Positions 2,971 to 47,560 of a DNA stretch of 64,000 bases are shown one piece after another. Position numbers and translations under genes: made by a program. Source of the DNA: Euryarchaeota archaeon UBA487 (GTDB lineage: Archaea; Thermoplasmatota; Poseidoniia; Poseidoniales; Thalassarchaeaceae); contig DAVU01000013.1 of the NCBI GenBank assembly GCA_002505695.1, positions 27,300 to 91,299 of the forward strand, given 5' to 3'. The notes below the pieces were generated by a model, which saw nothing but the letters and a program-made list of their open reading frames with translations, had not been told where the DNA came from and made no database searches. The first letter of the stretch is position 1. Each line of letters starts with the position of its first letter.

Positions 2971-2987
2971 GTGAAGGTGTGGTTTGA

Positions 2988-3611: not shown

Positions 3612-3668
3612 GAGAGAAATCAGTCAATCATCCGATGAGGTCATTGCTGGGAGCATCATCGGATTGGT

Positions 3669-6944: not shown

Positions 6945-6968
6945 GGCCCTAGATTTTGTTGATATGCC

Positions 6969-8618: not shown

Positions 8619-8655
8619 GGACTCGGGCTGTCAACCAGTTTGAAGAGCCTGTGGG

Positions 8656-22337: not shown

Positions 22338-22352
22338 CTGATCTGATGAGTC

Positions 22353-23696: not shown

Positions 23697-23742
23697 AAAT
23701 GTTGAGCGAAGTTGTCAAGCCACCAGACCCCTTCGTGGGTGC

Positions 23743-24534: not shown

Positions 24535-24778
24535 GATCTCAGAAATATCCTCCAGATGTTGTTCGGCTTTCACCCCAAAGAATCCGCGAATCAAGATTTA
24601 TAGTTTGTAAGAAAAGTGGTAGTATGGCTCAATTTACGAGGTTCATTTATATCAAGAATGCCGCATGAAATCGACCCTTGTTTGGTCAGGTTGAAGGCGA
24701 CGTTTATTATCAATAAGTCCGTCGCGGGAATCCTGCGCATTTGGGCCGTCGAGGTCTGACAGCGTACATGCCAGTCAG

Positions 24779-26044
24779 ATGGAAAAAAACGAGGTCGAAA
24801 CGAAAATGAGAGAGAACATCTTCGACTCGTTAATAGAGTCAGATTCACTTTTCGTAGACCGTCAGGCATTCGAACACGGCTTTGAGCCCGACAGTCTTCC
24901 ACACAGGGAAAAGGAAGTCAGGGGACTCGGAGAAAACTTGGTTGAAGCCTTGAGAGGGCACATACCCTCAAACATGCTTCTCTATGGGGTGCCCGGATCG
25001 GGAAAGACGATAGTTACGAAGACCGTCCTCAAACAACTGAAAAGTAAAGGGAAATCAAATGGAACAGCAGTCAAGGCCTACACAATCAACTGCAGGACAG
25101 TGGATACAAAATACCGAGTTATCCAAGGCTTAGCAAATCGATTGGAACGTGCTGGAGACATAAAGATTCCATTCACCGGATGGCCCACTGACAAAGTACT
25201 GGAAGAGTTTCGAAGAAGGATGGACAGGAGGGGAGGGATACACGTGATAGTGCTGGATGAGATAGATCACCTAGTCTCCAAAGTCGGTGACTCGATAATC
25301 TACAGCCTTACGAACTTGAACCTCGAACTTGAGTCCTCGAAGTGCTGCATTATAGGAATTAGCAACGATCTTCATTTCACAAAGATGCTAACACCCCAGG
25401 TTGCCTCAAGGCTCGCACAAATCGATCTTGTATTCCATCCGTATGGAGCCAATCAAATCAATGACATATTGCAAGAAAGAGTGCGCCATGGCATTCGTGA
25501 AGGCGTCTTAGATCAGAGTGTCGTCGGACTCTGTTCGGCCCTAGCTGCTCAAGAACATGGAGATGCACGAAGAGCCTTAGATTTACTGAGGATTGCTGTC
25601 AAGAAAGCACAGCAAATGGGTCATGACCTGGTTGATAGGGGGCACGTCCGTTTAGCCCAGAGCCAACTCGAACATGATCAACTCACACCAGTCTTGCGAA
25701 CTTTACCGCTACAACAAAAGATACTGTTGTTTTCAATCTGCATAAACGAAGAAAACGGTCTAAAGAATATTTCAACCGGAGAGATCTACAGAACTTACAC
25801 TGAGGTTTGTATGAGAATAATGATAGAACCACTCACCCCCAGAAGAATCTCCTCTTTATTGAACGAGTTGGACAGCCTTGGTATTATCATCGCTAGAAAT
25901 GTTAGCAAAGGACGGGGCGGGAGGAGTAAACAGATTAATTCTGCCCTACCTGAATCACTAGATGTTATGGCTGAAATGAGAGACTCTGAACCTATGATTG
26001 AGGAAGCGTCCAAATCAAAATACCGACTTCAAAGACCCCTTTGA
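24779..26044 (+). CDS. cdc6: Orc1/Cdc6 replication initiator
   Basis: 'LPHREKE', Walker A 'YGVPGSGKT', Walker B 'VIVLDEIDHL', 'GDARRALDLLR', C-terminal winged helix. Confidence 0.85.
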   Translation: MEKNEVETKMRENIFDSLIESDSLFVDRQAFEHGFEPDSLPHREKEVRGLGENLVEALRGHIPSNMLLYGVPGSGKTIVTKTVLKQLKSKGKSNGTAVKAYTINCRTVDTKYRVIQGLANRLERAGDIKIPFTGWPTDKVLEEFRRRMDRRGGIHVIVLDEIDHLVSKVGDSIIYSLTNLNLELESSKCCIIGISNDLHFTKMLTPQVASRLAQIDLVFHPYGANQINDILQERVRHGIREGVLDQSVVGLCSALAAQEHGDARRALDLLRIAVKKAQQMGHDLVDRGHVRLAQSQLEHDQLTPVLRTLPLQQKILLFSICINEENGLKNISTGEIYRTYTEVCMRIMIEPLTPRRISSLLNELDSLGIIIARNVSKGRGGRSKQINSALPESLDVMAEMRDSEPMIEEASKSKYRLQRPL

Positions 26045-28002: not shown

Positions 28003-30543
28003 TCATTCCATTGTGCGTGATCTTGTGATCAACAGCCTGGCAGTGATCAGGGGATCGCCTCCTGTTAGGTCAGTATGTGCGATTTCAGGCCATTTGTGAA
28101 GAGGTTGGGCTAACCAGCCAACCAATGGATGTGTCCGACCGGTGTAGGGAGGTAGTCCCATTGTAGCATTCCTCATGGACATAATGAGATCATGGATGTT
28201 TGCTACACTGGCCTCATCCAAGATTTCTATTCCGGGACCATATCGTATTGACTCTTCTAACGCATTCAAGAAACCATCTGAGGGTCCTGGATGGTTGAGG
28301 TCACCGGATCCTGGGAAATGATGTGGTTCCCCACTGGGTCGAAGAGCCAATGCTGCCCATGGGATGCTGCATAGCTCCGCATTATTCCACCATTGTTCGT
28401 TTTTCAACATGTTCAACAATATTTGTTCGGCGAGTGGTGCAAACCATTCCATGGGTATTTGCCTAACAATTTTTACCGAAAACGAGGGAGTCAGCCTTCC
28501 ATTGCCTTCGATCACTCTAACAAACCTTGACCATGTGTGTAAATCCGAGTTGGGTTTGTCCCTCGCTGCAATGTGCACACTGTCAAGTAGAGCTTTTTTC
28601 TCTCTTTCTTTTACGATCTTATAGGCCCCAGAAAGAGAGTCAATAGAACGATCTGGAATGTCGGATAACCATGCCGGTATTGCCCAAGACCTCAGGTCCT
28701 CTGTCATATCTGGAGATATATCTGCCGCAGAAGCCAAGAGTCGGCTTGCGATCCATATAGCGCCTGATGAAGCGGTTTCTGGTGGGGTCAGGGGCCTAAC
28801 CTCATATGGAAAATTAGGATTATCTTTAACCATGGTTGAGAATTTTTCTGAAAATAGTGGTAGTTTTCTTTTGTCTGAAATGTTGATGAATTCATGTAAC
28901 TCTGAGTCTGGAACATCTTCAAACCTGACTAGATCCATCCACTTCTGATCTACTCTTCCTTTGATTCGCTTCCATCTATTCCATCTCATCTTTCTCGGTG
29001 TAGCAATGAGGGCAGCTTCTGGATGTTCTGATTCCACCAAATTAGCCCAATAGTCGTCTTGTTCGTTTTTCTCATTTAGTGCAAGTGAGATGTATTCATC
29101 CTCCACTTCAGAAACCGTAAGTTCCACCGATAGAGAAGAAGACGAGGGTTCTTTTCTGGGATTGGAATCTACCATAGCGACGCTCAATTTTGTGTCATCG
29201 ATGCGTATCGGGGTCTCAATACCATTTTGATCGGTATACCTCGCCCAAGGAAGGGGCCTAGTTGTATCAGAGCTAAGTTTGGCGACTCCTTGGGCCTTAT
29301 ACTCATTACTTGAGAAAATAATTCGCCTTTCACTGTTCCTCAATAGCTGTTTGAACATATATTCAGGTATATCATCGCCGACTTCTATCGCAACAGGAAT
29401 ATCCTCATTAGATTGCAAAACCCATTTGATCAGGGCTTTCCTTGCTCTGATTCCGAGATCTTTCGTACTGATTGTCTCAGATGCCGTTTCCTTCTCTTCG
29501 AATTGGGAATTCCCCCAATCAGCCCTGAACCTTCTCAGAGTCTCCTCGGGGACTCTCGACCTTCTCCTAAGGAGGATCCTGTCCTTCAACGCTTGTGATC
29601 GTCTCCTGAGCTCCGATGGTTTAGTTCTCGGATGGGCCAGTTCTATCCAGCAGTCTAGAACATCCTCTGGTATGCTGGATGGTTTTTTTTTGCTGTCATG
29701 GATGCTCGATATCATCAGGTAATCATCCGGTATTGTCCTAGCAATCAACAATTGTCCCATGCGGCCTTCTATGTCAATTATCAGTAGATTTGGGGCGTAA
29801 ACGGGGCTTACATCTTCATGAAGTGTCCCTATTCTGAGATTAAATCCTGGTTGTGGATGGAATGGATGTTTTACTTCGTTGTATCTTGGTGTGAACCACG
29901 TGCCTGGTGCCAGTGATATGGGTCTTTTTTCACCAATCATCCTGGCGTTAAAAACGTAGACTGGGCGATCTCCTTCGGAAAAGGATTCAATGGAATTTGG
30001 GTTCAATTGAACGTCTGGCATTTCTGCTATTTTTCCAGTGTGCGGATTAATCCACAGACCATCACGACTTTCTACCTCAGCGAGTATCCATTGGGCCCCC
30101 TGATTTCCACTGGAATAATCTCCAGTAGGTTGCCTGTCAGGTATAGCGATCGTTAATTGATTGAATACGACAGTTGATGCCAACACTAGTCGATCTCTAT
30201 CCTTGGATACTAGACAGATATCGCTTTTTGTCGAGGGGATGGGTAAACAAGACTGGGCTCTATGTATTATGTCCTGTATGACAACATTCCTCCCCGAGGG
30301 CGTGAGGTGGATGGACGCTCCCCTTGTACCAGCTGTAGAAGCACTATCAACCAATTTTTCACGCCTGAGCCTCCTCAGTTCTGCCGACACATGCGGCATT
30401 CTTAGGTTAGTGAAGCGAGAAATTTCTGCAACCGTCATATCCGACCTGGATAGTGATGAGAGCACTCTCCTCCGATGGAGTCCCCTTATTCTTTGAGGGT
30501 CAAATGAGGAGTCGTTATTCGATGATTTATCCAATCTTGACAC
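28003..30543 (-). CDS. Large orphan protein with N-terminal ArsR/MarR-like winged helix-turn-helix
   Basis: Uninterrupted 846-codon ORF with a GTG start. Residues about 20-95 ('RRRVLSSLSRSDMTVAEISRFTNLRMPHVSAELRRLRREKLVDS...IHLTPSG') look like wHTH. No motif is recognised in the remaining ~750 aa. Confidence 0.6.
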   Translation of the reverse strand: MSRLDKSSNNDSSFDPQRIRGLHRRRVLSSLSRSDMTVAEISRFTNLRMPHVSAELRRLRREKLVDSASTAGTRGASIHLTPSGRNVVIQDIIHRAQSCLPIPSTKSDICLVSKDRDRLVLASTVVFNQLTIAIPDRQPTGDYSSGNQGAQWILAEVESRDGLWINPHTGKIAEMPDVQLNPNSIESFSEGDRPVYVFNARMIGEKRPISLAPGTWFTPRYNEVKHPFHPQPGFNLRIGTLHEDVSPVYAPNLLIIDIEGRMGQLLIARTIPDDYLMISSIHDSKKKPSSIPEDVLDCWIELAHPRTKPSELRRRSQALKDRILLRRRSRVPEETLRRFRADWGNSQFEEKETASETISTKDLGIRARKALIKWVLQSNEDIPVAIEVGDDIPEYMFKQLLRNSERRIIFSSNEYKAQGVAKLSSDTTRPLPWARYTDQNGIETPIRIDDTKLSVAMVDSNPRKEPSSSSLSVELTVSEVEDEYISLALNEKNEQDDYWANLVESEHPEAALIATPRKMRWNRWKRIKGRVDQKWMDLVRFEDVPDSELHEFINISDKRKLPLFSEKFSTMVKDNPNFPYEVRPLTPPETASSGAIWIASRLLASAADISPDMTEDLRSWAIPAWLSDIPDRSIDSLSGAYKIVKEREKKALLDSVHIAARDKPNSDLHTWSRFVRVIEGNGRLTPSFSVKIVRQIPMEWFAPLAEQILLNMLKNEQWWNNAELCSIPWAALALRPSGEPHHFPGSGDLNHPGPSDGFLNALEESIRYGPGIEILDEASVANIHDLIMSMRNATMGLPPYTGRTHPLVGWLAQPLHKWPEIAHTDLTGGDPLITARLLITRSRTME

Positions 30544-31114: not shown

Positions 31115-32122
31115 CTATTGACTAGGCCCCTCTTCCCAGCATCCCTCGGAGGCAAGTGAGTTCTCCGCACTTCTTTTGAGTAGTTTCGTTTGGGCGTCCT
31201 CAGTTTGTGATCTTGCCCACAGAGAAAGTGCATCTGCCAACAATGCTCTTCCAAAAGAGAAGGTGATTGGCCATGGTGGTTTGTCCGCGATCTGATTTAT
31301 CCTGTTGAGGTGGTTTGTGGCGTCGTAATCAGACTGGCCTCCCGAAAGGAATGCGATGCCTGCTACATTCTTGGGAACATTTTGTTTGAGTGCATCGCAG
31401 GTTAATTTTGCAACTTCATCGGCCAATGCACCAGGTGATTCTTTTCCTGGAAGGACCATATTTGGCTTTAGAATAGTCCCAGATAGCATAACCCCTTGTG
31501 TTTGACAATCTGAATAAACGGCTTTCAATACCCTTGATGTGACTTCGAAACATTCCATAATGCTGTGGCCACCATCCATCAACACCTCAGGTTCAATTAT
31601 GGGCACAAGACCTTGTTCTTGACATATTGAGGCATACCTCGCAAGAGCATGGGAGTTTGTTGATACTGATGCTGCGCTCGGACGGTTTTTGGATATGGAA
31701 ATGACTGCTCTCCATTTTGCAAACCTTGCACCCATGTTGTAGTATTCCTCACACCTTTCCCTTAGTCCATCCAATCCCTCTGTGACGGTCTCTCCTGTGT
31801 GTCCGGCCAATGGTTTTGCACCAGTATCTACTTTTATGCCCGGAAGCATTCCTCTGTCAGTCAAATATCTAGGAATAGGGGTTCCATCATCCATTTTTTG
31901 TCTAATTGTTTCATCAAATAGAATTACTCCTGAAATGTATTTTTCTAGCCCGGGCGTAGAAAACATTGCAGTTCTGTAGAGTCTTCTAGACTCCGAATTT
32001 GCTTCAATTCCGACTGCTTCAAGTCTTTTTGACATTGTTCCATTGCTTTCATCGGCCGCGAGGATTCCCTTACCTTGGCGAACTAGTGATTTTGCAATTG
32101 TTTCTAGAGGGTGGGAGGTCAT
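31115..32122 (-). CDS. fba: Fructose-bisphosphate aldolase, class I (classical 'Glycolytic' family)
   Basis: 'GKGILAADESNGTMSKRL', 'GVILFDET', 'PGIKVDTGAKPLAGHTGETVTEGLDGLRERC', 'FAKWRAV' are near-collinear with muscle-type aldolase. Confidence 0.9.
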   Translation of the reverse strand: MTSHPLETIAKSLVRQGKGILAADESNGTMSKRLEAVGIEANSESRRLYRTAMFSTPGLEKYISGVILFDETIRQKMDDGTPIPRYLTDRGMLPGIKVDTGAKPLAGHTGETVTEGLDGLRERCEEYYNMGARFAKWRAVISISKNRPSAASVSTNSHALARYASICQEQGLVPIIEPEVLMDGGHSIMECFEVTSRVLKAVYSDCQTQGVMLSGTILKPNMVLPGKESPGALADEVAKLTCDALKQNVPKNVAGIAFLSGGQSDYDATNHLNRINQIADKPPWPITFSFGRALLADALSLWARSQTEDAQTKLLKRSAENSLASEGCWEEGPSQ

Positions 32123-32173
32123 GTTAACGGTGCTACCACCCGGGGAGGTATGAATGAATGCATCGAATAGGAT

Positions 32174-33127
32174 CTACACATCGAATGTCATTTTTTCTAT
32201 CCTTGTCGTTGATGTGCTTACGTCGATAACCTCGGAGGTGACCACTATTGACCCATCAGAATTCTTGGTGGGCCCAGGGACTCGACCCCTGCAAACTCCA
32301 GACCCTATGTACACCGAGTCTTTGGACGAGCACAACTCATCCCTTTTCCATATGTGTTCCATCTTATCCCCTACCATCTGAATGGCCCTTTTTTTGTGGT
32401 CGGGGTTTGTAGTCACCAACCGCCCCTCAAAAAATGCGTTCAAACCGCGCAAAGCGGTTGCGGTTATTACTCCCTCAGGCGCAGCTCCGATACCCATCAA
32501 CAAGTCGGTGGAGGAGCTGCTGTCTGCCGAATCCAAAGCTGCAGTGATGTCCCCGTCCCCAATCAGTGAAACCTTTGCACCCATGGTTTGTATCTTTGAT
32601 ATGAGATCCTCGTGCCTCGGACGATCCATCACAACGACCTCCAAGTCCGAAATTGGTTTGTTCATTGCGTCCCCAGCAGCCTCAAGATTGTACTCCAAGG
32701 TACCCTCGAGGCTAATCTCTCCGATGAGCGCAGTACATCCTGCCAACTTGTCCATGTAGCAGTCAGGCGCATGCAACAACGCGCCTCTGGGTGCGGCTGC
32801 TAAAACGGCCATGGCGTTTGGTTTGTTGTAAGCCACATGATTTGTGCATTCCAACGGATCAACCGCAATGTCAATCTTCTCTGCGCGTGGATCATCCCTC
32901 AGAGAGCCCAACATCTCCCCAATCCAGAGCATTGGGGCATCGTCCCTCTCTCCCTCTCCAATGGCTACTCTCCCATTGAATGGAATGGAATCAAAAACTG
33001 ATCTCATTGACTCTACTGCCGCTCCATCTGCGGCTTTTCCATCCCCTTTACCAACCCATTCGTAGGCTGCGAGGGCAGCAGAACTTGTCGCGCGAATGAA
33101 ATCATTGGTAAGGTCGCGCACAGGCAT
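32174..33127 (-). CDS. glpX: Fructose-1,6-bisphosphatase class II
   Basis: 'AALAAYEWVGKGDGKAADGAAVESMR', 'IAVDPLECT', 'DGDITAAL', 'LMGIGAAPEGVITA' are collinear with GlpX. Confidence 0.9.
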   Translation of the reverse strand: MPVRDLTNDFIRATSSAALAAYEWVGKGDGKAADGAAVESMRSVFDSIPFNGRVAIGEGERDDAPMLWIGEMLGSLRDDPRAEKIDIAVDPLECTNHVAYNKPNAMAVLAAAPRGALLHAPDCYMDKLAGCTALIGEISLEGTLEYNLEAAGDAMNKPISDLEVVVMDRPRHEDLISKIQTMGAKVSLIGDGDITAALDSADSSSSTDLLMGIGAAPEGVITATALRGLNAFFEGRLVTTNPDHKKRAIQMVGDKMEHIWKRDELCSSKDSVYIGSGVCRGRVPGPTKNSDGSIVVTSEVIDVSTSTTRIEKMTFDV

Positions 33128-34125: not shown

Positions 34126-35349
34126 GTGAGCGAGCGGGTTGACATACTCGGGGCTGGTCTATCTGGGTTGTCTTCTGCCATAATATTGGCAAAGTCAGGA
34201 AAAGAAGTCCACGTTCATGAAGTTAGGCAGGATAGCGGGGCAAGATTTGATGGAGACTTTCAAGGAATAGAAAATTGGACATCAGAGATTGATTTCTTCG
34301 ATGAAATGCGGGAATGGGGGCTTGATCCGAACTCTTTCAAGTCAAATCCATTTGGGGTTGTCGACTTGGTCCATCCGGATGATGTGATTACCAACCCTGT
34401 GACAGACGGGGTTGCATTCAGAGTTGTTGAGCGAGGTACGGATAGTCACTGCATAGATCAAGGTTTCAAGAAAATGGCACTTGACGCAGGAGTGAAAATT
34501 CACTACGGTGTGAAGGTGGATCCTTCTCAATGTGACATTATTGCGGCTGGACCCAAGGAGTCTAGCGCGGTGGCCTTTGGAGAGATTTTCGAAACCAGTC
34601 ATCCCAATCATGTGACTTTCCAGTTGAATGACAAATTGGCACCTGGAGCTTACAGCTACATGATCATCATCGACGGAGTGGGATTAATTTGTACTTGCCT
34701 GTGGAGAAAACAACGCAAGAGCGGACGTTTCTTGGACGAAACAATAGTCTGGTACGAGAATCACTATGAGTTGGACAGGAAACCCATTAAACGAGTCGGT
34801 GGAAAAGGCGATTTTTCACTCCCTGAGAAATACGTCTTTGATGGTCGGTACTATGTCGGTGAGGCTGGTGGACTTCAAGACTTTATGTGGGGATTTGGCA
34901 TGAGATACGCAATTACCAGCGGGGTTTTGGCGGCAAAGTCTATGCTAGGAGAGGTCAGTTACGAGAAAGAAGTCAGGACGAAATTACTCCCGCTCGTCAA
35001 AGTGAGCGCGACGAACCGATTCATAATGAACAGAATGGGAGACAGGGGTTTCAAGGCAGTCGCGAAATACTGGATGAGAGATCAAAAGAAGACCGGTGAT
35101 GGTTTGGGGTTTATGCGTCTGATCTACAAGCCCGGCATCTTCAGGAGGATGTTGTGGCCATTCGTTCGTTTTGGTATGCTAACCAAGGGAGCAACCTCCG
35201 ATGGCCGGTCTTATCATAGGATGCCATTTAGGAAGGCACTGAAGAGAGACGATTGGAAGCCAAGCGCAGAGGCCAAACTAGTGGCTTCACAATGGAAAAA
35301 TATTCAGAGGGCAGGTGGCAAGACCTCCTTCAATTCAAACGATCAGTGA
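34126..35349 (+). CDS. FAD/NAD(P)-dependent oxidoreductase (geranylgeranyl-reductase/FixC-like)
   Basis: N-terminal dinucleotide fold 'VDILGAGLSGLSSAIILAKSGKEVHVHE'. GTG start. Confidence 0.6.
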   Translation: MSERVDILGAGLSGLSSAIILAKSGKEVHVHEVRQDSGARFDGDFQGIENWTSEIDFFDEMREWGLDPNSFKSNPFGVVDLVHPDDVITNPVTDGVAFRVVERGTDSHCIDQGFKKMALDAGVKIHYGVKVDPSQCDIIAAGPKESSAVAFGEIFETSHPNHVTFQLNDKLAPGAYSYMIIIDGVGLICTCLWRKQRKSGRFLDETIVWYENHYELDRKPIKRVGGKGDFSLPEKYVFDGRYYVGEAGGLQDFMWGFGMRYAITSGVLAAKSMLGEVSYEKEVRTKLLPLVKVSATNRFIMNRMGDRGFKAVAKYWMRDQKKTGDGLGFMRLIYKPGIFRRMLWPFVRFGMLTKGATSDGRSYHRMPFRKALKRDDWKPSAEAKLVASQWKNIQRAGGKTSFNSNDQ

Positions 35350-35416
35350 TAGTTGGTTCTAAATCAATGGTTCCAGCCATCGCTTGGTTGATATGGGCCA
35401 TTACCATCGGAGGGTC

Positions 35417-36277
35417 ATGACAGATTGGCCAGAGCTAGTACCAATGAAAAACAAACTCGTCAACTATGGCGTCACGGAGAATGGAATCGCCATTATCGAA
35501 TTGATCTCAGACTCAGAGGGAGCACCTCTACAGGAAGGAAAGACGCCCGTAAACACCTACACTCGAGAGATGTGGCATGATATAGACGATGCAATTTTGA
35601 GCGCAAGATTCGATGATGATGTTAGCGTGATCCTCCTCACTGGCCACGGAGACAAGTTTTTTTCCGCTGGAGCAAGCATAAAGTATCTCAATAAACTGAG
35701 TCCAAGATACAAATATTTTTTCTGTCTTCATGCTAATGAAACACTCAGCAGACTGGAACAGACTCCCAAGTTGGTTATCGCTGCTCTCAACGGTCACACC
35801 GTGGGCGGTGGGTTGGAAATTGCCATGGCCGCAGACATCCGGATTGCAAGAAAAGGGAATTTCCAAGTCGGACTACCAGAGGTCTCTCTGGGAGTGTTAG
35901 CTGGAACTGGAGGTACTGCAAGACTTTCTCGACTGGTTGGTAAGGCAAAGTCAATGGAAATCATGGTCACAGGAAGAAAGTTCCAGTTTGAAGAAGCGAA
36001 GGACATGTCACTCGTTCATGACATATACGACAGCATGAGTCTAGATGAATTTCGCCAAGATGTCTTGGACTACGCCGGACAATTCTCACTGCCATTTGCT
36101 GCAGCAAAAGCCATTGGCAACATAAAAAGGAGTGTGCAAAGTGGTCTTGAGATTCCATTAGAGTACCATCTTGCACTGGAAAGAGAACTACAATCAGACC
36201 TATTCCAGTCAGAAGATGCAAAGGCCGGGATAGCAGCATATGTGGACAAGAAGACACCAAAATTTACTGGAAATTGA
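35417..36277 (+). CDS. Enoyl-CoA hydratase/isomerase (crotonase) family protein, in a boxC-like position
   Basis: 'ILLTGHGDKFFSAGASI', 'VIAALNGHTVGGGLEIAMAADIRIA', 'LPEVSLGVLAGTGGTARLSRLVG'. Confidence 0.75.
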   Translation: MTDWPELVPMKNKLVNYGVTENGIAIIELISDSEGAPLQEGKTPVNTYTREMWHDIDDAILSARFDDDVSVILLTGHGDKFFSAGASIKYLNKLSPRYKYFFCLHANETLSRLEQTPKLVIAALNGHTVGGGLEIAMAADIRIARKGNFQVGLPEVSLGVLAGTGGTARLSRLVGKAKSMEIMVTGRKFQFEEAKDMSLVHDIYDSMSLDEFRQDVLDYAGQFSLPFAAAKAIGNIKRSVQSGLEIPLEYHLALERELQSDLFQSEDAKAGIAAYVDKKTPKFTGN

Positions 36278-36348
36278 TTTTTCATATCAGAAGAAGGACC
36301 CATGGATCAAGCCCGAACTTGAAATACGACCTAACATTTCAACGGGCT

Positions 36349-37494
36349 ATGAGCAAGACGGATGTAGTCGAGGCATATACCCCGAATTTTGAGGGCTGGG
36401 TCAGAGAATTCCATGAATGGCAAACAAGGATAGGATTCGACCCAGCGTGGTTAGGAGACTATCGATTTGAGATCAGGTTCGACTGGGATTCCGCTGGGAA
36501 GACCATTGAATTCGGAGATTTCGAAGGAATGCCGAAATGGAGCAGAAGGATGCAAATTCCTCAACAGAACATCCGTGACGCTATAATTAACATGATTAGC
36601 GTTCAGGGAGACACAGAATTTGCATCTGTCGAGCAACAGAATCACTTACTTGCCACCGCACCGACAGAATACGACAGAAAATCCGCATTGAGGATAATGT
36701 GTGAGGAGCAGCGACATGGATGGCAGATGGCCTACTTATTGTGCACATACTTCGGCGAACAAGGCGTAAGGGAAGCTGCAAAATTGCTTGAGAGGAATGC
36801 GCAAGATGGGACTAGGCTCCTTGGTTCTTTCAACGCCCCCATAGATCACTGGCTAGATTTCTTTTGCTTTACTCACTTCATCGACAGGGATGGGAAGTAT
36901 CAATTGAAAATGCTCTCCACTAGCTCATTTCAGCCTCTATCTGCCTCAATGGGGCCAATGCTGAAAGAGGAGTCTTTCCACCTCGGAACAGGAGCAAATG
37001 GGCTAAGGAGGATTGTGAAAGCAGGAGTCATCCCAGTCTCATTCCTACAGAAATACATCAACAAGTGGGTGAGCACGGGACTCGACCTATTTGGCACGGA
37101 CGAATCCACATCGGCCCAATGGGCGTATGTCTATGGCGTCAAGGGTAGATACGACGAGAGGGAATCCGAGCAAGAGGCTGACCGAGAACACCTGAATGAA
37201 GCCAGCAGGGGATTGTATTTCGATGAGCTAAAGGCAGAAATGGTAAGAATAAGCAAAGGTCGAAAAGAAGGCGAACCTGAACTCTACATACCATCTGACA
37301 AGTTCAACCGGGGGATAGGAAAATACTCGTCAGAGATGTATACCGTCAAGGGAGAAGAATTTGAGGGGAGTCCGGAAGAATATCGAACCTACCTTTCCGA
37401 GGTCTTGCCATCGGATGAAGATGAGCGCAAGCTCATGGAGGAGTACATGGCTCCCGGCGTAGAGTGGATACAATATCGCGAGTGGAAGGGCTGA
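36349..37494 (+). CDS. BoxB-like di-iron oxygenase (benzoyl-CoA 2,3-epoxidase subunit B family / PaaA-related ferritin-like)
   Basis: 'VQGDTEFASVEQQNHL', 'MCEEQRHGWQMAYLL', 'FTHFIDRDGKYQL', 'MLKEESFHLGTG' parallel the BoxB segments as I recall them (GDTEPASVEQQRHL / VEEGRHLWAMVYLL / ITDRDGKFQL / LTEEAHH). An upstream TTG (36274) is possible. Confidence 0.65.
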   Translation: MSKTDVVEAYTPNFEGWVREFHEWQTRIGFDPAWLGDYRFEIRFDWDSAGKTIEFGDFEGMPKWSRRMQIPQQNIRDAIINMISVQGDTEFASVEQQNHLLATAPTEYDRKSALRIMCEEQRHGWQMAYLLCTYFGEQGVREAAKLLERNAQDGTRLLGSFNAPIDHWLDFFCFTHFIDRDGKYQLKMLSTSSFQPLSASMGPMLKEESFHLGTGANGLRRIVKAGVIPVSFLQKYINKWVSTGLDLFGTDESTSAQWAYVYGVKGRYDERESEQEADREHLNEASRGLYFDELKAEMVRISKGRKEGEPELYIPSDKFNRGIGKYSSEMYTVKGEEFEGSPEEYRTYLSEVLPSDEDERKLMEEYMAPGVEWIQYREWKG

Positions 37495-37522
37495 TCCCTT
37501 AGCAATAACTGGAGATGATCTG

Positions 37523-38086
37523 ATGCAAACTCATGCGCTATTGAACGTTGATAGGAAATTGCTCGCACCATTTTTCGATAGGGTGCCCGAGTTGTTTGAC
37601 AAATATCACAACCGTGAAGAAGAGAAACCAGATGTCTACGAGGAGTTGCTGTACAAAATCCACAGACCTCTCACTAGTGAGATGCTGGACATGATCGATG
37701 ACTGGATGGGCATAGAACATCGTAATCTAAACCAGGATCAGGAATTGATGCTGCGCCTTTTCCTACTCGCAATTAGGTATCCAGACACGCTCCTGCTAGA
37801 GAGCCTTGATGACGTCATCACAAATGATGTTCGAAGAATATCAGCGTACCTACACTTCACCAGCCACACTTACACGATTTGGGACCAAGACACGCGATCA
37901 GGACTGAAAAAACTAGGATTTGACATCCCTGACACCAAAAAAGCCGACCCCTTCATCTATGGCGCCTACGTAGGTACCATTGAGCTGATTAAAGATCTAG
38001 CTCCCTTCACCTGCTTCCTAGAGCACGACGTTCCGAGACAACGGTTGTTTCAGGCTGCAATTGCCCAGTATGGTCGCGAAGCCTGA
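37523..38086 (+). CDS. Hypothetical protein
   Basis: 187-codon ORF tightly packed between the BoxB-like and HADH genes. No motif recognised. Confidence 0.5.
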   Translation: MQTHALLNVDRKLLAPFFDRVPELFDKYHNREEEKPDVYEELLYKIHRPLTSEMLDMIDDWMGIEHRNLNQDQELMLRLFLLAIRYPDTLLLESLDDVITNDVRRISAYLHFTSHTYTIWDQDTRSGLKKLGFDIPDTKKADPFIYGAYVGTIELIKDLAPFTCFLEHDVPRQRLFQAAIAQYGREA

Positions 38087-38112
38087 AGTCCTTTGTTATC
38101 CCTGAATGTATC

Positions 38113-39015
38113 ATGAGGGATGAGGGGATAGGGACTGTCGCAGTGATTGGCGCGGGGGCGATGGGTGCTGGAATTGCACAAGTGTTTGCGGAAAAGGGAT
38201 TTGAAACCCGACTTTTCGATCCGTATCCCGAAAGCCTTGAGCGAGGCATGAATCAGATCAAAGACTTCTGGAAAAAGGGGATAGAACGGGGGAAAACCAC
38301 CATAGAAGACAAAGAAAATTGGTCCCGAAATCTTAGCTATGAGGGAGAACTAGAGAAAACTACAAGCGATGCAGACTTGATAATCGAGGCCGCTCCTGAG
38401 AACCTAGACCTCAAAAAAGGGATATTCTCTGAGCTGGAGAAGATTACAAAACCCGGAGCGATTCTTGCAAGCAACACATCCAGCCTCTCAATAGGGATGC
38501 TGGCTGATGGCCTCTCGCAACCTGGGAGGGTGATTGGAATGCATTTTTTCAATCCAGTGCCACTAATGACACTATTAGAGATCGTTCGACATGACAAAAA
38601 CGACCAACACACAATAGACACTATCCGGAAGATAGGGTCTAAGATCGGTAAGACTACTATTCTAGTGAATGATGTGCCAGGTTTTGCAACAAGTCGACTT
38701 GGGGTTGTTCTCGGGAACGAGGCTATTCGTATGCTTGCAGAAGGAGTGGCATCTGCATCAGACATTGACACCGCAATGAGGCTTGGTTACAAGCATCCGA
38801 TGGGACCTCTCGAATTGTCAGACATGGTTGGACTGGACGTTAGAAGGGATATCCTCAACGGTTTATCCGAGTCACTTGGCGACGAGAGGTATCTCCCTCA
38901 TCCGCTACTTGAAAAATTAGTCAATGAGGGAAGTCTCGGAAAAAAGACTGGGGTCGGCATTTACCATTGGAAGGACGGTCAAAAGACTGATCGAGAGGAC
39001 CTTGGGGGGCGATGA
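38113..39015 (+). CDS. 3-hydroxyacyl-CoA dehydrogenase
   Basis: 'VAVIGAGAMGAGIAQVFA', 'ASNTSSLSI', 'GMHFFNPVP.M.LLEIV', 'PGFATSRL'. Confidence 0.85.
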   Translation: MRDEGIGTVAVIGAGAMGAGIAQVFAEKGFETRLFDPYPESLERGMNQIKDFWKKGIERGKTTIEDKENWSRNLSYEGELEKTTSDADLIIEAAPENLDLKKGIFSELEKITKPGAILASNTSSLSIGMLADGLSQPGRVIGMHFFNPVPLMTLLEIVRHDKNDQHTIDTIRKIGSKIGKTTILVNDVPGFATSRLGVVLGNEAIRMLAEGVASASDIDTAMRLGYKHPMGPLELSDMVGLDVRRDILNGLSESLGDERYLPHPLLEKLVNEGSLGKKTGVGIYHWKDGQKTDREDLGGR

Positions 39016-39788
39016 TGCTGGATTTTTCTGGAATGAAAGTTCTTGTTACGGGTGGTGCCGGGGGGATAGGAACTGAGATATGTCGCCAGTTGCATGCTTT
39101 TGGGGCAGAAGTCGTAGTACACTATTACAACTCGAAACTCCAAGCAGAGGAACTTGCAAAGGAGATTGGTGGTATTGCAATTCAAGCCGATTTGACGAAC
39201 GAAGATGATGCAATCAATCTTTTCAAACAAATTGAGAACTCACACGGGGGCCTGGACTGTTGTGTCGCAAACGCTGGTAAATACCCAACTGAATCGCTAC
39301 CAGCGTGGGAGATCAGTGGTGATAGGCTGTCGGAGACTCTCGACCTAAATCTCAAAGTTTCTTTCTTCACATCTCGAGAGTTCTTGAGGCGTGCGGTGGA
39401 GCGTAGACATGGGTCTCTAGTATTGGTTGGTTCAACAGCTGGTGTCCATGGAGAGCAGGGTCATGCCGACTACGCATGTGCTAAAGGGGCCATCACAAGC
39501 GGCTTACTCAAAACTCTGAAAAATGATGTAGCAGGAACTGGAGTTAGAGTCAATGCTGTGGCGCCGGGCTGGACACTAACCGAGTCAAAAATCAATGATG
39601 GCTTCGATGAAAGTATATCAAAAACGGCTCTGAAGACCATGTCGATCAAAAAATTGGCGATTCCGAAAGATGTGGCTTCAGCGGTCTCATTCCTACTTCA
39701 TGACGGATATAGTGGACATATCTCCGGCCAAGTTCTAGAGGTATCAGGCGGTATGGAAGGTAGAATTATTCCAGGGGTTGATGAATGA
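39012..39788 (+). CDS. SDR family oxidoreductase (FabG-like)
   Basis: 'VLVTGGAGGIG', 'NAG', 'YACAKGA' (YxxxK). ATGA overlap with the upstream gene. Confidence 0.8.
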   Translation: MMLDFSGMKVLVTGGAGGIGTEICRQLHAFGAEVVVHYYNSKLQAEELAKEIGGIAIQADLTNEDDAINLFKQIENSHGGLDCCVANAGKYPTESLPAWEISGDRLSETLDLNLKVSFFTSREFLRRAVERRHGSLVLVGSTAGVHGEQGHADYACAKGAITSGLLKTLKNDVAGTGVRVNAVAPGWTLTESKINDGFDESISKTALKTMSIKKLAIPKDVASAVSFLLHDGYSGHISGQVLEVSGGMEGRIIPGVDE

Positions 39789-40059
39789 ATTGGCCGAACT
39801 ATGGATAGAGGTTATTGGCCTGTTTGCAGGCATGATCGGCGTGATCGCATGGATCCCGCAGATAAGGGAGGTTTGGTTTACAGGAAAACATGAGGGCATA
39901 TCGCTTCCAACCTTCGGTTTGATTGCAACCGCACTCTCTGCTTGGCTGATTTACGGAGTTTTAATCAGATCGCTATCAATTATACTTGCAAATCTCGCTG
40001 CGTTGGGATGCATTTCGTTGATAATCCTTGGAGTGATTCGATTGCGAGGGCATGAATGA
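39781..40059 (+). CDS. SemiSWEET / PQ-loop three-TM transporter
   Basis: About 92 aa with three TM helices and 'IAWIPQIREVW' (PQ motif after TM1). Overlaps the SDR stop by 8 nt. Confidence 0.55.
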   Translation: MNELAELWIEVIGLFAGMIGVIAWIPQIREVWFTGKHEGISLPTFGLIATALSAWLIYGVLIRSLSIILANLAALGCISLIILGVIRLRGHE

Positions 40060-40060
40060 C

Positions 40061-40846
40061 TCATTTCATAAAATTTGGATCCCTCTTTTCCAGGAAAGAC
40101 CTTACCCCTTCCTTGAAATCAGTTTCCATTGCCGCCGCAACCATCAGTTGTCTTTCAAATTCAAGTTGGGTTTCAAAAAATGTGGTTGTGGATGCATCGA
40201 GAAGTTGTTTCGTACCTCGTCTACTGCTTTCTGACCATGAACCCCATTTCTCTGCGACCTCAATAGATCTTGAGATAAGTTCAGACTCCGGAACTATCTC
40301 GTCCAAGGCCCCGTGTTCTAGGGCCTCCTCTGAACTCCAAACCTGATTCTCGAAGAAGAATTCCTTTGATTTCTGAAGCCCAACTAACCTTGGCAGGAGC
40401 CATGTTGTGCCCCCATCCGGTGAAAGGCCTAATCGGAAGAACGCGGCGGCAAGTTTGGCTTTGCCATTTGAGATACGATAGTCAGTACTCAATGCAAGCC
40501 CCAAACCCCCCCCTGCAGCAGCACCGTTCATCGCACCGACAAACACTGTAGGCGTTCTTCTCATACGCAACAGAAGAGGGTGTAATTGTCCGGTCATCGA
40601 CTCAACTAACTCCCTGATAACCCCCGCGTCTATAGCTTCGTCAAACTTGTCAACAGGCCCTCCCGCGGAAAAGAACTTGCCAGTTCCAGTTAAGACAACG
40701 GCATTTGTATTGGGATCCTCGATCAATCCGTCAATCGTACTTACGACGTCCTCAATGGTCCCCGAGGAAAAGGTGTCTCGCGAAGTTTTCTCGGAGAATG
40801 TGACTAAAGCAACATGCGGAGAGGGGTGGTTGACTGAAAGCGCCAT
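40061..40846 (-). CDS. Enoyl-CoA hydratase/isomerase family protein
   Basis: 'VVLTGTGKFFSAGG', 'VGAMNGAAAGGGLGLALSTDYRI'. The start is moved to the internal ATG (Met20). Confidence 0.75.
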   Translation of the reverse strand: MALSVNHPSPHVALVTFSEKTSRDTFSSGTIEDVVSTIDGLIEDPNTNAVVLTGTGKFFSAGGPVDKFDEAIDAGVIRELVESMTGQLHPLLLRMRRTPTVFVGAMNGAAAGGGLGLALSTDYRISNGKAKLAAAFFRLGLSPDGGTTWLLPRLVGLQKSKEFFFENQVWSSEEALEHGALDEIVPESELISRSIEVAEKWGSWSESSRRGTKQLLDASTTTFFETQLEFERQLMVAAAMETDFKEGVRSFLEKRDPNFMK

Positions 40847-40915
40847 GCATCCCCACAGAAGCCTTTGGCTATGAACTCCATGAACGTGATAAGGGAATGT
40901 CACCTACGCGAGGTC

Positions 40916-42343
40916 ATGATAACAAGGGATATGCTGTATATCAACGGTTCTTGGACCGCATCCAGCGGTGAATCTGCCCTGCTCGTTGAGAATCCAACCA
41001 GTGAGGAAATTATTGGTTCAGTTCCTGACGGGACAATTCAGGACACTGATTTAGCAGTGGAAGCCGCGAAAAATGCATTTGATTCGTGGTCGAAGTCGCC
41101 GATTCAAGAAAGAATCAGGATTCTTCATGCATTATCAGAGTCATTCAAGGAGAGGTCAGAGGAACTTGCTGAGATCATTACCTCCGAAGTTGGGACTCCC
41201 ATAGAATACTCCAGAATCGCGATGGTCGGGACACCGAGGGTGGTTTCGAAAAGCTACGCCAAGTTGCTTGATTCATACAAATGGGAAGAGGAAGTTCGAA
41301 ATTCAATAATTGTCAAAGAGCCTATCGGGGTATGTGCCTTCATTACCCCATGGAATTTCCCATTGCACCAAATCATTGGAAAGGTGGCTCCGGCAATAGC
41401 CGCAGGATGCACGATGATATTGAAACCGTCCAGAGAAGCGCCGATTAATGCATTCATTCTAGCCGATATTCTTCATGAGATAGGGCTTCCAGATGGTGTA
41501 TTCAATCTCGTAAGTGGTCGAGGATCGACGGTAGGGAGCAGGTTGTCTTCCCATCCCGATGTTGATATGATCTCCTTCACAGGTTCCACATCCGCGGGCA
41601 TAGCAGTGACTGAGGATGCCGCCAGAACTGTCAAGAGAGTGACTCTGGAGTTGGGGGGAAAAAGTGCAAATGTTGTATTGGAAGATGCTGATGTAATTAG
41701 AGCTGCAAAGTCCTCAATCTCCGCATGTTTTGCCAACTCTGGTCAGACATGTTCTGCGCTCACTCGACTTATAGTCCCAGAGTCGAAGATATCAGAGATG
41801 ATTCCCGTGATTGCAGAAAGGGTGTCGAAATACAAAATAGGAAACCCGATGGATCCTTCAACCCGATGTGGGCCAATGGTTTCTGCGAGCCAGAAAGAGA
41901 GTGTCTTAGAATTTGTCCGAGCGGGAATTGAAGAAGGGGCGACCTTAGTCGCTGGCGGGCCGGAAGACGTAGATGGAATCGAGAAAGGACATTTTGTGAG
42001 ACCAACGGTTTTCAAGGATGTAAAACCAAGTATGAGGATTTGGAAAGAGGAGATTTTTGGTCCTGTTCTCTGCATAACTTCCTACAAAGACGAAGATGAG
42101 GCATTGGAACTCGCAAACGACTCAGATTACGGTCTATCTGGAGGTGTATGGTCATCTGATCCGAATAGGGCCCTGCAATTCGCCCGGAAGATGCGAACAG
42201 GGCAGGTTAGCATAAACGGAGGTCCTTTCAATGTGAGTGCGCCGTTTGGAGGATACAAGAAATCAGGTAATGGTCGTGAATTGGGCATCTATGGGCTTGA
42301 AGAGTTTCTAGAAATTAAATCTATACAGAAACCAATACAATAA
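40916..42343 (+). CDS. NAD(P)-dependent aldehyde dehydrogenase
   Basis: 'FITPWNFPL', 'LELGGKS', 'FANSGQTCSA', 'EEIFGPV', 'GGYKKSGNGRE'. Confidence 0.85.
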   Translation: MITRDMLYINGSWTASSGESALLVENPTSEEIIGSVPDGTIQDTDLAVEAAKNAFDSWSKSPIQERIRILHALSESFKERSEELAEIITSEVGTPIEYSRIAMVGTPRVVSKSYAKLLDSYKWEEEVRNSIIVKEPIGVCAFITPWNFPLHQIIGKVAPAIAAGCTMILKPSREAPINAFILADILHEIGLPDGVFNLVSGRGSTVGSRLSSHPDVDMISFTGSTSAGIAVTEDAARTVKRVTLELGGKSANVVLEDADVIRAAKSSISACFANSGQTCSALTRLIVPESKISEMIPVIAERVSKYKIGNPMDPSTRCGPMVSASQKESVLEFVRAGIEEGATLVAGGPEDVDGIEKGHFVRPTVFKDVKPSMRIWKEEIFGPVLCITSYKDEDEALELANDSDYGLSGGVWSSDPNRALQFARKMRTGQVSINGGPFNVSAPFGGYKKSGNGRELGIYGLEEFLEIKSIQKPIQ

Positions 42344-46732: not shown

Positions 46733-47560
46733 CTATCTTCCCTTCCATTTAGGTTTCTTCTTCGAGAGGAAGGCCTCAACTCCAATTGAAGAGTCCTCGG
46801 TGTCAAAAAGCGCGACGAATTCCGACCTTTCTGCAAGTATCCCCTGAGTTAGTGGGAGATCCAAGGACGATCTGATTGCCCTCTTCGCTACTTTAACAGT
46901 GTATGGAGATTTTTGTGCGATTCTGCTGGCTAGGGAAATAACCTCTTCTCTCAATTTTGTCGATGGATAAACCGAATTGACCAACCCAATTTCTAATGCT
47001 CTGGTAGCCGGAACCATCTCCCCGGTAAGAATCATCTCCATTGAGATTCCATATCCTACTAGGTTTGTCAATCGCTGAGTTCCACCGCCACCCGGTATCA
47101 ATCCAAGATTAATTTCTGGTTGCCCGAAATTTGAGTCCTCGGATGCCATTCGTATGTCGCATGACAGGGCTAATTCAGTTCCGCCACCTAGTGCATACCC
47201 ATCAATCATCGCAATCGTCGGCTTTGTGAGATTCCAGACTTTTTCCCATGCATTATTTTCGAAGAAAGGCCTCACATCATCCGAGCCCTGTCCCGAGAAC
47301 TCCGAGATATCTGCTCCAGCTGCGAAAGCCTTGGGCTTCGGTCGTTCATCTCCCGGATCTGATTGTGCTCCGGTGATCACGATAACTCGAACTGAATCGT
47401 CAGATTCTGCTTTGTCACATGCTTGTATCAATTCTTTGTGAGTAGCTCTGTTGAGGGCATTCAGCCGATTTGGGCGATTCAGTGTCCAGATTTCTATGCA
47501 ACCACCTGCTGGATTTGTAGAAACATCAATCCTCTCGACGTTGACGAGATCCTCTGTCAT
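46733..47560 (-). CDS. Enoyl-CoA hydratase
   Basis: 'VIVITG...AFAAGADI', 'TIAMIDGYALGGGTELALSCDIRMA', 'QPEINLGLIPGGGGTQRL'. Confidence 0.8.
   Translation of the reverse strand: MTEDLVNVERIDVSTNPAGGCIEIWTLNRPNRLNALNRATHKELIQACDKAESDDSVRVIVITGAQSDPGDERPKPKAFAAGADISEFSGQGSDDVRPFFENNAWEKVWNLTKPTIAMIDGYALGGGTELALSCDIRMASEDSNFGQPEINLGLIPGGGGTQRLTNLVGYGISMEMILTGEMVPATRALEIGLVNSVYPSTKLREEVISLASRIAQKSPYTVKVAKRAIRSSLDLPLTQGILAERSEFVALFDTEDSSIGVEAFLSKKKPKWKGR

Follow-up and report, generated by a model that had tools for sequence, protein, structure and literature searches.

A short BoxB-type di-iron oxygenase and its conserved neighbours in Poseidoniales archaea: a candidate module for aryl-CoA epoxidation

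Aerobic, CoA-dependent ring attack has been described in two forms, the Box pathway and the phenylacetyl-CoA (Paa) pathway, and both serve here as the reference for a gene cluster found at positions 34126-42343 of a 64,000-nucleotide stretch (the window) of contig DAVU01000013.1 from Euryarchaeota archaeon UBA487, at the centre of which lies a di-iron oxygenase related to BoxB. In the Box pathway, the partners of BoxB include BoxA, a reductase with FAD plus two [4Fe-4S] clusters (TIGR03224), BoxC, a two-domain crotonase-fold dihydrolase of approximately 550 amino acids (aa), BoxD, an aldehyde dehydrogenase, and a benzoate-CoA ligase. BoxB itself, the oxygenase component of the bacterial benzoyl-CoA 2,3-epoxidase, which depends on NADPH and O2 (Azoarcus evansii; 3PER/3PM5; TIGR03225), measures approximately 473 aa and belongs to the ferritin-like di-iron fold family PF05138. 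Its iron ligands are Glu120, Glu150, His153, Asp211, Glu240 and His243, and benzoyl-CoA is oriented by Gln116, Thr119, Ser123, Phe193, Phe203/206 and Thr210 (PMC5489048). The Paa pathway (PaaABCDE, PaaG, PaaZ or a separate enoyl-CoA hydratase (ECH) plus PacL, PaaF, PaaH, PaaJ) starts with a di-iron CoA-ester epoxidase, and the archaeal cluster recalls it in this first step as well as in the later ones, which involve a PaaG-type isomerase, a crotonase/aldehyde dehydrogenase pair, a hydratase, a 3-hydroxyacyl-CoA dehydrogenase and a thiolase. In many bacteria the fused PaaZ is replaced by separate ECH and aldehyde dehydrogenase (ALDH) enzymes, and PaaG-type isomerases possess a single catalytic Asp (PMC7497051). 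An initial annotation of the window, made from the DNA letters alone, had proposed a Box-like cluster in an archaeon, with an epoxide-type attack on a CoA ester.

The oxygenase gene (36349-37494, forward strand) encodes a protein of 381 aa that matches PF05138 (PaaA_PaaC) with 44.4 bits (E=1.5e-11; gathering threshold 28.5), which places it within this superfamily. Its best NCBIfam match is the BoxB model TIGR03225, with 217.6 bits against an equivalog cutoff of 499.1 and with only profile positions 63-328 of the 471-position model covered, and the PaaA model TIGR02156 yields 41.9 bits, below its 280-bit equivalog cutoff. Among PDB entries, the top match is BoxB 3PER (E=4e-47), with PaaA far behind at ~1e-5. 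Full-length alignment has revealed end-to-end homology with BoxB, at ~39-44% identity in the catalytic core, with four surface insertions of BoxB deleted in the archaeal protein. Four segments that the initial annotation had quoted as shared with BoxB (GDTEFASVEQQNHL, EEQRHGWQMAYLL, IDRDGKYQL and LKEESFHLG) have all been found in the translation, where they contain the BoxB metal ligands, and the alignment indicates a complete di-iron site, with six of six ligands identical (E120, E150, H153, D211, E240 and H243). In the second shell, six of the seven pocket residues are identical in the alignment (Q116, T119, S123, F193, F203 and F206), the seventh, T210, being replaced by Ile. This pocket signature is discriminating, considering that the SSO1313-type PaaA/BoxB-like protein (4MUD, 235 aa), also an archaeal PF05138 member with similar core helices (E=2.7e-22), is much shorter, differs at five of these positions (Q116R, T119F, S123M, F193S and F203V) and belongs to another subfamily. 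The description of a BoxB-like di-iron protein is thus borne out: judged from its sequence, the oxygenase is a genuine relative of BoxB, which is its closest characterised homologue by a wide margin.

Nonetheless, the short protein does not group with canonical BoxB. Against TIGR03225, the true BoxBs reach 672 and 908 bits, and homologues of approximately 350-395 aa remain at 51-234 bits. In a quick neighbour-joining tree, midpoint-rooted and without bootstrap or other support values, all short forms, including those of marine Group IIa (MGIIa) and marine Group IIb (MGIIb) archaea, fall in a clade apart from canonical BoxB, with MGIIa and MGIIb jointly monophyletic and nested among bacterial short forms. 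The short clade also has a pocket signature of its own, with Ile or Val instead of Thr at position 210 and usually Tyr at position 206, the replacement of Phe206 by Tyr occurring in MGIIa and in most bacterial members. Since the score lies below half of the cutoff, the four insertions are missing, the clade is separate and the pocket signature is distinct, the oxygenase is not a BoxB orthologue, and is best classed as a member of a separate "short BoxB" clade (365-385 aa), sister to BoxB. The kinship with BoxB expected by the initial annotation is supported by the NCBIfam and PDB matches, but the position outside the canonical clade and the 217.6 bits against 499.1 do not sustain membership of a Box cluster.

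The clade is widespread. An exhaustive search of representatives clustered at 50% identity returned 872 clusters of oxygenase homologues, thousands of short forms were detected in uncultured Acidobacteriota/Terriglobia, Binatia, Gemmatimonadales, Zixibacteria and others, and a bacterial short form used as query gave 5,421 matches across archaea and several bacterial phyla. A scan of GTDB species detected at least 581 oxygenase loci, the best 80 of which are all Poseidoniales by sequence, with oxygenase identities of 70-99% in MGIIb and 60-64% in MGIIa. Two loci carry bacterial labels ('Salinimicrobium sp.', L060, and 'uncultured Rhodobiaceae bacterium', L077) and hold an MGIIa-type oxygenase at 61-64% identity, with the full MGIIa gene order present in L060; both are probably mis-binned archaeal contigs. 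The host genome of the window is that of a Thalassarchaeaceae (MGIIb) archaeon, in agreement with the archaeal origin assumed at the outset: Cdc6/Orc1, fibrillarin, Nop and PCNA occur in the window, and the locus is 99% identical to that of Euryarchaeota archaeon UBA558. Its relatives are likewise Thalassarchaeaceae/Poseidoniales, and the assignment of the window to an MGIIb Poseidoniales genome follows from the Thalassarchaeaceae labels on the homologues of a 187-aa protein encoded next to the oxygenase. The oxygenase family has received the names "benzoyl-CoA 2,3-dioxygenase component B" from JGI and "PaaI" or "Phenylacetic acid catabolic protein" from NCBI, and MG-II boxB is listed, in a single-line mention, among the highly expressed genes in a 2016 Red Sea metatranscriptome (PMC5069720). 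The JGI name and this mention temper the novelty initially claimed for such an enzyme in planktonic Euryarchaeota; a literature search on boxB in Poseidoniales and on BoxB-like homologues returned nothing relevant. What is new here is a distinct BoxB sister clade that has a set of partners of its own and is a core feature of an abundant order of archaea.

The partner set emerges from synteny, which was counted by tblastn of the window proteins against the best 80 of the at least 581 oxygenase loci (80 Poseidoniales species). The gene for the 187-aa protein (37523-38086, forward strand) stands directly after the oxygenase in 77 of 77 loci, and that for a 3-hydroxyacyl-CoA dehydrogenase (HADH; 38113-39015, forward strand; 3HCDH_N E=1.5e-60, 3HCDH E=4e-31) lies downstream of it in 59 of 59. 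A divergent FAD-dependent oxidoreductase (FADox; 34126-35349, forward strand; NAD_binding_8 at the N-terminus) adjoins a hydratase-type crotonase (ECH1; 35384-36277, forward strand; 297 aa; ECH_1 E=1.3e-44) in 56 of 57 loci. A second, PaaG-type (isomerase-like) crotonase (ECH2; 40061-40903, reverse strand; 280 aa; ECH_1 E=2.3e-47) adjoins an ALDH in all 40 loci holding both, which in the window is an NAD(P)-dependent enzyme divergent from ECH2 (40865-42343, forward strand; Aldedh E=2e-163). Conservation of the cluster across Poseidoniales, which the initial annotation had named as a point to check, is therefore strong. The arrangement varies between the two groups: the FADox-ECH1 unit, together with MoaE, abuts the oxygenase in MGIIb, whereas in MGIIa it is inverted and placed 3-9 kb away with unrelated genes intervening. 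The ECH2-ALDH pair is not found within 9 kb in 15 of 35 MGIIb loci, and orthologues of the window's ALDH occur in MGIIb, the ECH2-adjoining ALDH of MGIIa being of another subfamily. A thiolase, 52% identical to that of bacterial short-BoxB clusters, occurs 3-4 kb upstream in two MGIIb loci. From these pairing counts and layouts, the cluster resolves into a core composed of the oxygenase, the 187-aa protein and HADH, with the pairs FADox-ECH1 and ECH2-ALDH as satellites.

Two further genes, included in the initial annotation as cluster members, do not share this conservation. A FabG-like short-chain dehydrogenase/reductase (SDR; 39012-39788, forward strand; adh_short_C2 E=5e-43) occurs in only four of 59 loci (L001, which is that of UBA558, L002, L003 and L050) and is a recent insertion outside the conserved cluster. 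A SemiSWEET/PQ-loop membrane protein (39778-40059, forward strand; PQ-loop E=1.2e-6; SemiSWEET_2 55.8 bits, cutoff 80) is present in 24 of 41 MGIIb loci and in none of 18 MGIIa loci, and is a variable accessory transporter, added late. In MGIIa loci, a regulator of the HTH_10 type is encoded upstream of the oxygenase, and an EamA transporter occupies the SemiSWEET-equivalent position after the 187-aa homologue. The nine-gene list itself, obtained by open reading frame (ORF) listing together with Pfam and NCBIfam scans, reproduced the order, strands, coordinates and families given earlier, with MoaE/MoaC flanking the cluster upstream and a rhodanese-domain gene downstream. The tight packing is real, but the several 4-8-nt overlaps that had been reported are slightly overstated, the overlaps being of 4 nt between HADH and SDR and 11 nt between SDR and SemiSWEET. 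A 4-nt overlap of ECH1 and the oxygenase needs an upstream TTG start, and the ATG at 36349 is favoured by homologues of 380-381 aa. The 39-nt divergent overlap between ECH2 and ALDH is probably an artefact of alternative start codons further upstream, and the true start of ECH1 probably lies near 35444.

The short BoxB is also accompanied by related enzymes in bacteria, as seen in several of the seven bacterial contexts examined (Acidobacteriota/Terriglobia, Binatia, Gemmatimonadales and others). Their oxygenases, of 365-380 aa, share the pocket signature and 51-56% identity with the archaeal one (53-56% in the case of the bacterial clusters compared partner by partner). Two contigs present the order TetR-ECH-ALDH-thiolase-ECH-short BoxB-GDPD-HADH-ECH. 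The partners are 58% identical to the archaeal ones for ECH1 (against the first ECH of L081 and L085), 48% for HADH (L081) and 42% for ALDH (L081). Compared with the archaeal clusters, the bacterial ones add TetR, a thiolase and a third crotonase, but are devoid of FADox and the 187-aa protein. Since the neighbours of the bacterial short BoxBs are orthologous to the archaeal partners, the comparison favours a functional module shared by lateral transfer over an adjacency by chance. Neither BoxA nor BoxC occurs in any of the seven contexts. In two of them (L086 10156-11739 and P0482), the short BoxB is followed by a NuoE-like gene (small 2Fe-2S thioredoxin-like) and a NuoF-like gene (Complex1_51K, NADH_4Fe-4S), a pair that constitutes a plausible candidate for an NADH-dependent reductase system, new for a BoxB-family oxygenase. 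As other short BoxBs adjoin NuoE/NuoF-like or 2Fe-2S ferredoxin genes, the clade is suggested to use interchangeable electron donors other than BoxA. On an Acidobacteria-type contig (L085), the order TetR-ECH-...-ECH-short BoxB is followed by Fer2, MoCoBD and FAD_binding_5 genes (L085 10310-14834). These three correspond to the architecture of the xanthine-dehydrogenase family, as in 4-hydroxybenzoyl-CoA reductase and furoyl-CoA dehydrogenase; this context and the molybdenum cofactor (Moco) genes MoaE/MoaC flanking the Poseidoniales cluster could be coincidental or could point to a step catalysed by a molybdoenzyme.

The 187-aa protein has no counterpart in BoxB systems, whereas in Poseidoniales its gene always follows that of the short form. 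No Pfam or NCBIfam match was obtained for it, and a Pfam scan of individual homologues returned only noise. Its 171 homologues all belong to Thalassarchaeaceae and relatives, which restricts the protein to Poseidoniales, and the MGIIa versions are only 25-37% identical. An alignment-based AlphaFold2 (AF2) model is all-helical, with a pLDDT of 87 and a pTM of 0.84, compared to a pLDDT of 36 for a single-sequence model, and a search of the model against the PDB and BFVD gave no significant match (best E=2.7 and 0.53, TM <=0.36). The model is consistent with a novel fold, confidently predicted and without known relatives. A likeness to HhH-GPD glycosylases appeared in a few weak top matches (TM ~0.3) and was judged insignificant, and a degenerate ferritin-like (PaaC-like) subunit was also rejected, with hhalign against the BoxB alignment returning a probability of 0.2% and a PDB profile search returning nothing. 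The polar residues H111, H115, D121, D123, E154, E167, H168 and D169 are invariant and there is one Cys; this polar cluster may form a metal- or ligand-binding site. The invariable position beside the oxygenase suggests that the protein serves it as an accessory subunit. As for FADox, the parts recognised by single-sequence and profile searches are limited to the FAD/NAD(P) fold at the N-terminus and, weakly in the profile search, the C-terminal stretch 210-312, which matches digeranylgeranylglycerophospholipid reductase 3OZ2 (E=0.007). The protein is kept in MGIIa and MGIIb, with 56-80% identity, and is absent from the bacterial clusters examined; this specificity to the archaeal clusters makes it a candidate electron donor or additional redox enzyme.

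The two crotonases differ in their active sites. ECH1 retains both hydratase glutamates (GGGLEIAM, LPEVSLG), among PDB entries it is closest to 2PPY and to 5ZAI, an archaeal 3-hydroxypropionyl-CoA dehydratase, and its features are those of an ordinary single-domain hydratase. ECH2, on the other hand, lacks both glutamates, reading GGGLGLAL and AFFRLGLSPDGG where E. coli PaaG aligns with AFSKLGLIPDCGG. The active-site segment of the E. coli enzyme (AFSKLGLIPDCGGTWLLPR) recurs in ECH2 as AFFRLGLSPDGGTTWLLPR. The Asp in the GL-x-PD segment of ECH2, together with the missing hydratase glutamates, is the pattern of PaaG-type enzymes. Its best NCBIfam match is 'oxepin-CoA hydrolase, alternative type' (NF046063; 151.6 bits, below the cutoff of 300), with PaaG (TIGR02280) at 136.6 bits, below the cutoff of 345; the motifs indicate a PaaG-type (isomerase-like) crotonase. 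The ALDH has its best matches among BADH/ALDH1-type enzymes (TIGR01804, 458 bits; 6X9L, 448 bits). A third crotonase (46733-47560, reverse strand), located 4 kb downstream of the cluster, has PaaF (2,3-dehydroadipyl-CoA hydratase) as its best NCBIfam match, with 242.9 bits (cutoff 371), and could be the source of a further hydratase step; in many MGIIb loci, a weak signal of an ECH1 paralogue (30-36%) appears about as far away.

With these assignments, the roles of BoxC and BoxD initially offered to the crotonases and the ALDH fall away. Both crotonases are single-domain proteins of 280-297 aa, one an ordinary hydratase and the other of the PaaG type, and no two-domain candidate was detected. 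BoxC is absent from the 25 NCBIfam matches listed for either of them; its structure 2W3P ranks 60th, with 66 bits, for ECH1 and falls outside the 60 PDB matches listed for ECH2. BoxD is likewise not among the 25 NCBIfam or top 60 PDB matches listed for the ALDH, a generic enzyme. A search for BoxA, in which whole genomes were not included, gave no match in the cluster, in the window or beside any short BoxB examined. The sole FNR-like ORF of the window (22353-23696; FAD_binding_1/NAD_binding_1), located 12.6 kb from the cluster and devoid of a ferredoxin or Fe-S domain, was rejected as a BoxA candidate, scoring 394 bits as a CysJ-type protein and only 77.6 bits as BoxA (cutoff 459). Its occurrence near the short BoxB in five MGIIa loci was also rejected as a specific linkage, since it is part of a conserved Cdc6-MBL-CysJ-like-biotin carboxylase block (MBL, metallo-beta-lactamase). 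No benzoate-CoA ligase was detected in or near the cluster; the sole AMP-binding enzyme of the window (1147-2970) is 31 kb away and has no homologue within 10 kb in 80 related loci, where other AMP-binding ligases were not looked for. No thiolase occurs near the cluster in the window, and the Pfam and NCBIfam scans found no PaaB-, PaaC-, PaaD- or PaaE-like genes in the cluster. The short form thus differs from BoxB in having neither a BoxA partner nor BoxC/BoxD neighbours, and the cluster differs from the Paa pathway in that its oxygenase is closer to BoxB, PaaB/C/D/E equivalents are missing and no Paa equivalog cutoff is reached.

The locus may then represent the Poseidoniales version of a short-BoxB module, that is, a BoxA/BoxC-independent epoxidase pathway for a benzoyl-type aryl-CoA ester, a reading to which we give an even chance. 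From what the sequences show, namely the clade membership, the intact metal site, the nearly identical ring pocket, the synteny and the orthology of partner enzymes between archaea and bacteria, we infer in this reading the substrate class, the type of reaction and the catabolic direction, along with the roles of FADox, the 187-aa protein and the ECH2-ALDH pair. The reduced di-iron centre would activate O2 and epoxidise, or otherwise mono-oxygenate, the ring of a benzoyl-type aryl-CoA thioester, with electrons provided by a donor other than BoxA, the candidates being FADox and a general ferredoxin system. ECH2 and the neighbouring ALDH would take over the labile epoxide/oxepin, which they would process or open, and would oxidise the aldehyde formed. 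ECH1, as a hydratase, and HADH would perform beta-oxidation-like steps, and the route would be completed by a thiolase and a CoA ligase whose genes lie elsewhere. Overall, the logic would be a hybrid of Box and Paa in which BoxA, BoxC and BoxD are missing. The enzyme set broadly fits the epoxide-type CoA-ester pathway first envisaged, but the BoxA, BoxC and BoxD members were not found in or near the cluster, and the caution expressed at the time that the substrate may not be benzoate was justified.

Several observations weigh against an aryl-CoA epoxidase. The universal presence of the oxygenase in the order and its high expression fit a housekeeping function at least as well as aromatic catabolism. 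The clade-wide pocket change (Thr210 to Ile/Val, usually with Phe206 to Tyr) adjoins the ligand Asp211, and because of these replacements the substrate or regiochemistry of the short clade may differ from that of BoxB; the pocket was mapped by sequence alignment rather than from a structure of the oxygenase. No aryl-CoA ligase, reductase or ferredoxin was found in or near the archaeal cluster, the partner enzymes are all of generic beta-oxidation types and fall below every equivalog cutoff, and two of the bacterial short BoxBs are solitary. In addition, the literature search found no characterised member of the short clade.

A first alternative, unlikely in our view although the most probable of the rivals, is that the short BoxB oxygenates (hydroxylates, desaturates or epoxidises) a non-aromatic acyl-CoA, be it alicyclic, enoyl or branched-chain, and feeds the ordinary beta-oxidation of archaea that degrade lipids and proteins. 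The generic nature of ECH1, HADH, ALDH and thiolase, none of which is at an aromatic-pathway equivalog cutoff, would be in keeping with such a role, as would the T210I/V and F206Y changes that set the pocket apart from BoxB, a highly expressed oxygenase gene core to the order, and the rich acyl-CoA metabolism indicated by the PaaF-like crotonase and the acyl-CoA ligase and IcmF-like mutase in the window. However, the aromatic cage (Phe193, Phe203 and Phe/Tyr206) and the thioester-binding Gln116 are kept throughout the clade and lost in the distant paralogue, and the PaaG isomerase type of ECH2 is typical of ring-epoxide pathways. Less probable is a housekeeping or biosynthetic role, in which the enzyme would modify, repair or detoxify a cofactor, quinone or lipid precursor borne on a CoA ester, with neighbours either serving it or unrelated to it. 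Universal conservation in both Poseidoniales families, the constant pairing with the 187-aa protein, the high in-situ expression, the resemblance of FADox to geranylgeranyl reductase-type flavoproteins and a location among central-metabolism and Moco-biosynthesis genes would all suit this role; yet the TetR, ALDH, thiolase, HADH and several crotonases that recur in bacteria look catabolic, the archaeal clusters contain a transporter in their midst, and no conserved prenyltransferases, methyltransferases or other biosynthetic types are found nearby.

It is quite improbable that the genes are mere conserved neighbours without a shared pathway, with synteny resulting from low genome rearrangement in Poseidoniales. 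The 3-9 kb of unrelated genes that lie between FADox-ECH1 and the oxygenase in MGIIa, the 15 of 35 MGIIb loci without ECH2-ALDH within 9 kb, and the retention in both families of larger blocks such as Cdc6-MBL-CysJ-like-biotin carboxylase are compatible with this possibility, but inertia is a poor explanation for orthologous enzyme types clustering round the short BoxB in remote bacteria. The canonical aerobic benzoate (Box) pathway, with BoxA, BoxC and BoxD encoded elsewhere, is the least probable of all, for although no characterised homologue is closer than BoxB, six of the seven pocket residues agree and the JGI family name points the same way, the oxygenase attains less than half of the cutoff score in a family where true BoxBs reach 672-908 bits and, with four deletions relative to BoxB, falls in a separate clade, no BoxA, two-domain BoxC or BoxD-type ALDH was found in or near the cluster (the CysJ-type protein reaching only 77.6 of 459 bits), and the seven bacterial contexts are also without BoxA or BoxC.

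Additional features have been observed in the rest of the window. The region 1147-7724 holds the AMP-binding acyl-CoA ligase (607 aa), followed by a 1091-aa fusion of B12-binding, MeaB GTPase and methylmalonyl-CoA-mutase domains (IcmF-like) and an SDR; a fused acyl-CoA mutase is notable for an MGII archaeon and points to the rearrangement of branched-chain or short acyl-CoAs. A block conserved between MGIIb and MGIIa (19997-26044 in the window, 3797-9264 in the MGIIa locus L056) comprises Cdc6/Orc1, a metallo-beta-lactamase-fold protein, the CysJ-like flavoprotein and a biotin carboxylase, and directly abuts the short-BoxB gene in one MGIIa subclade. The CysJ-like FAD/NADPH flavoprotein has no flavodoxin domain, presents a unique N-terminal region of ~180 aa and is always found beside the biotin carboxylase. 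The BoxB-like cluster lies ~10 kb from the Cdc6 gene, which may mark a replication origin. Upstream of the cluster, the reverse strand encodes an 846-aa protein in which only an N-terminal ArsR-type helix-turn-helix is recognisable (28003-30543), and a class I fructose-bisphosphate aldolase beside a GlpX-type (bacterial class II) fructose-1,6-bisphosphatase (31115-33127), the GlpX gene being near the cluster in MGIIa too (L075). Just downstream, also on the reverse strand, there is a protein resembling Ca2+-dependent phosphatidylinositol-specific phospholipase C (PF16670; 43233-44300), which has a hydrophobic N-terminus and is probably secreted or membrane-anchored, followed by an SPFH/Band 7 protein, and further on a 1002-aa protein without Pfam match (54610-57618, reverse strand).

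Regarding the oxygenase family, the label "benzoyl-CoA 2,3-dioxygenase component B" is an over-annotation for the short clade. As this clade is widely auto-labelled as BoxB, the enzyme counted in metagenomic surveys that take "boxB" as a marker of aerobic benzoate degradation is probably a different one, still uncharacterised. The 187-aa partner, for its part, provides a confidently modelled protein of predicted novel fold in a clear functional context. Marine Group II archaea are abundant and uncultured heterotrophs whose carbon substrates are mostly inferred, and an oxygenase that belongs to their core genes, is expressed and has an aromatic pocket like that of BoxB offers a testable handle on the use of aromatic CoA-activated compounds by these organisms. 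A broader proposal, which we put forward tentatively and hold to be less probable than the pathway itself, is that Poseidoniales, which rank with the most abundant archaea of the plankton, universally carry and express a hitherto unrecognised BoxA/BoxC-free aryl-CoA ring-epoxidase. In it, a minimal oxygenase of the BoxB clade would work with the 187-aa protein of novel fold as obligate partner and with a non-canonical flavoprotein as electron donor, and the system would be shared laterally with several uncultured bacterial phyla. If true, CoA-dependent aerobic ring attack would have a third branch next to Box and Paa, and Poseidoniales would be significant aerobic consumers of benzoate-type or aromatic-amino-acid-derived dissolved organic matter in the surface ocean.

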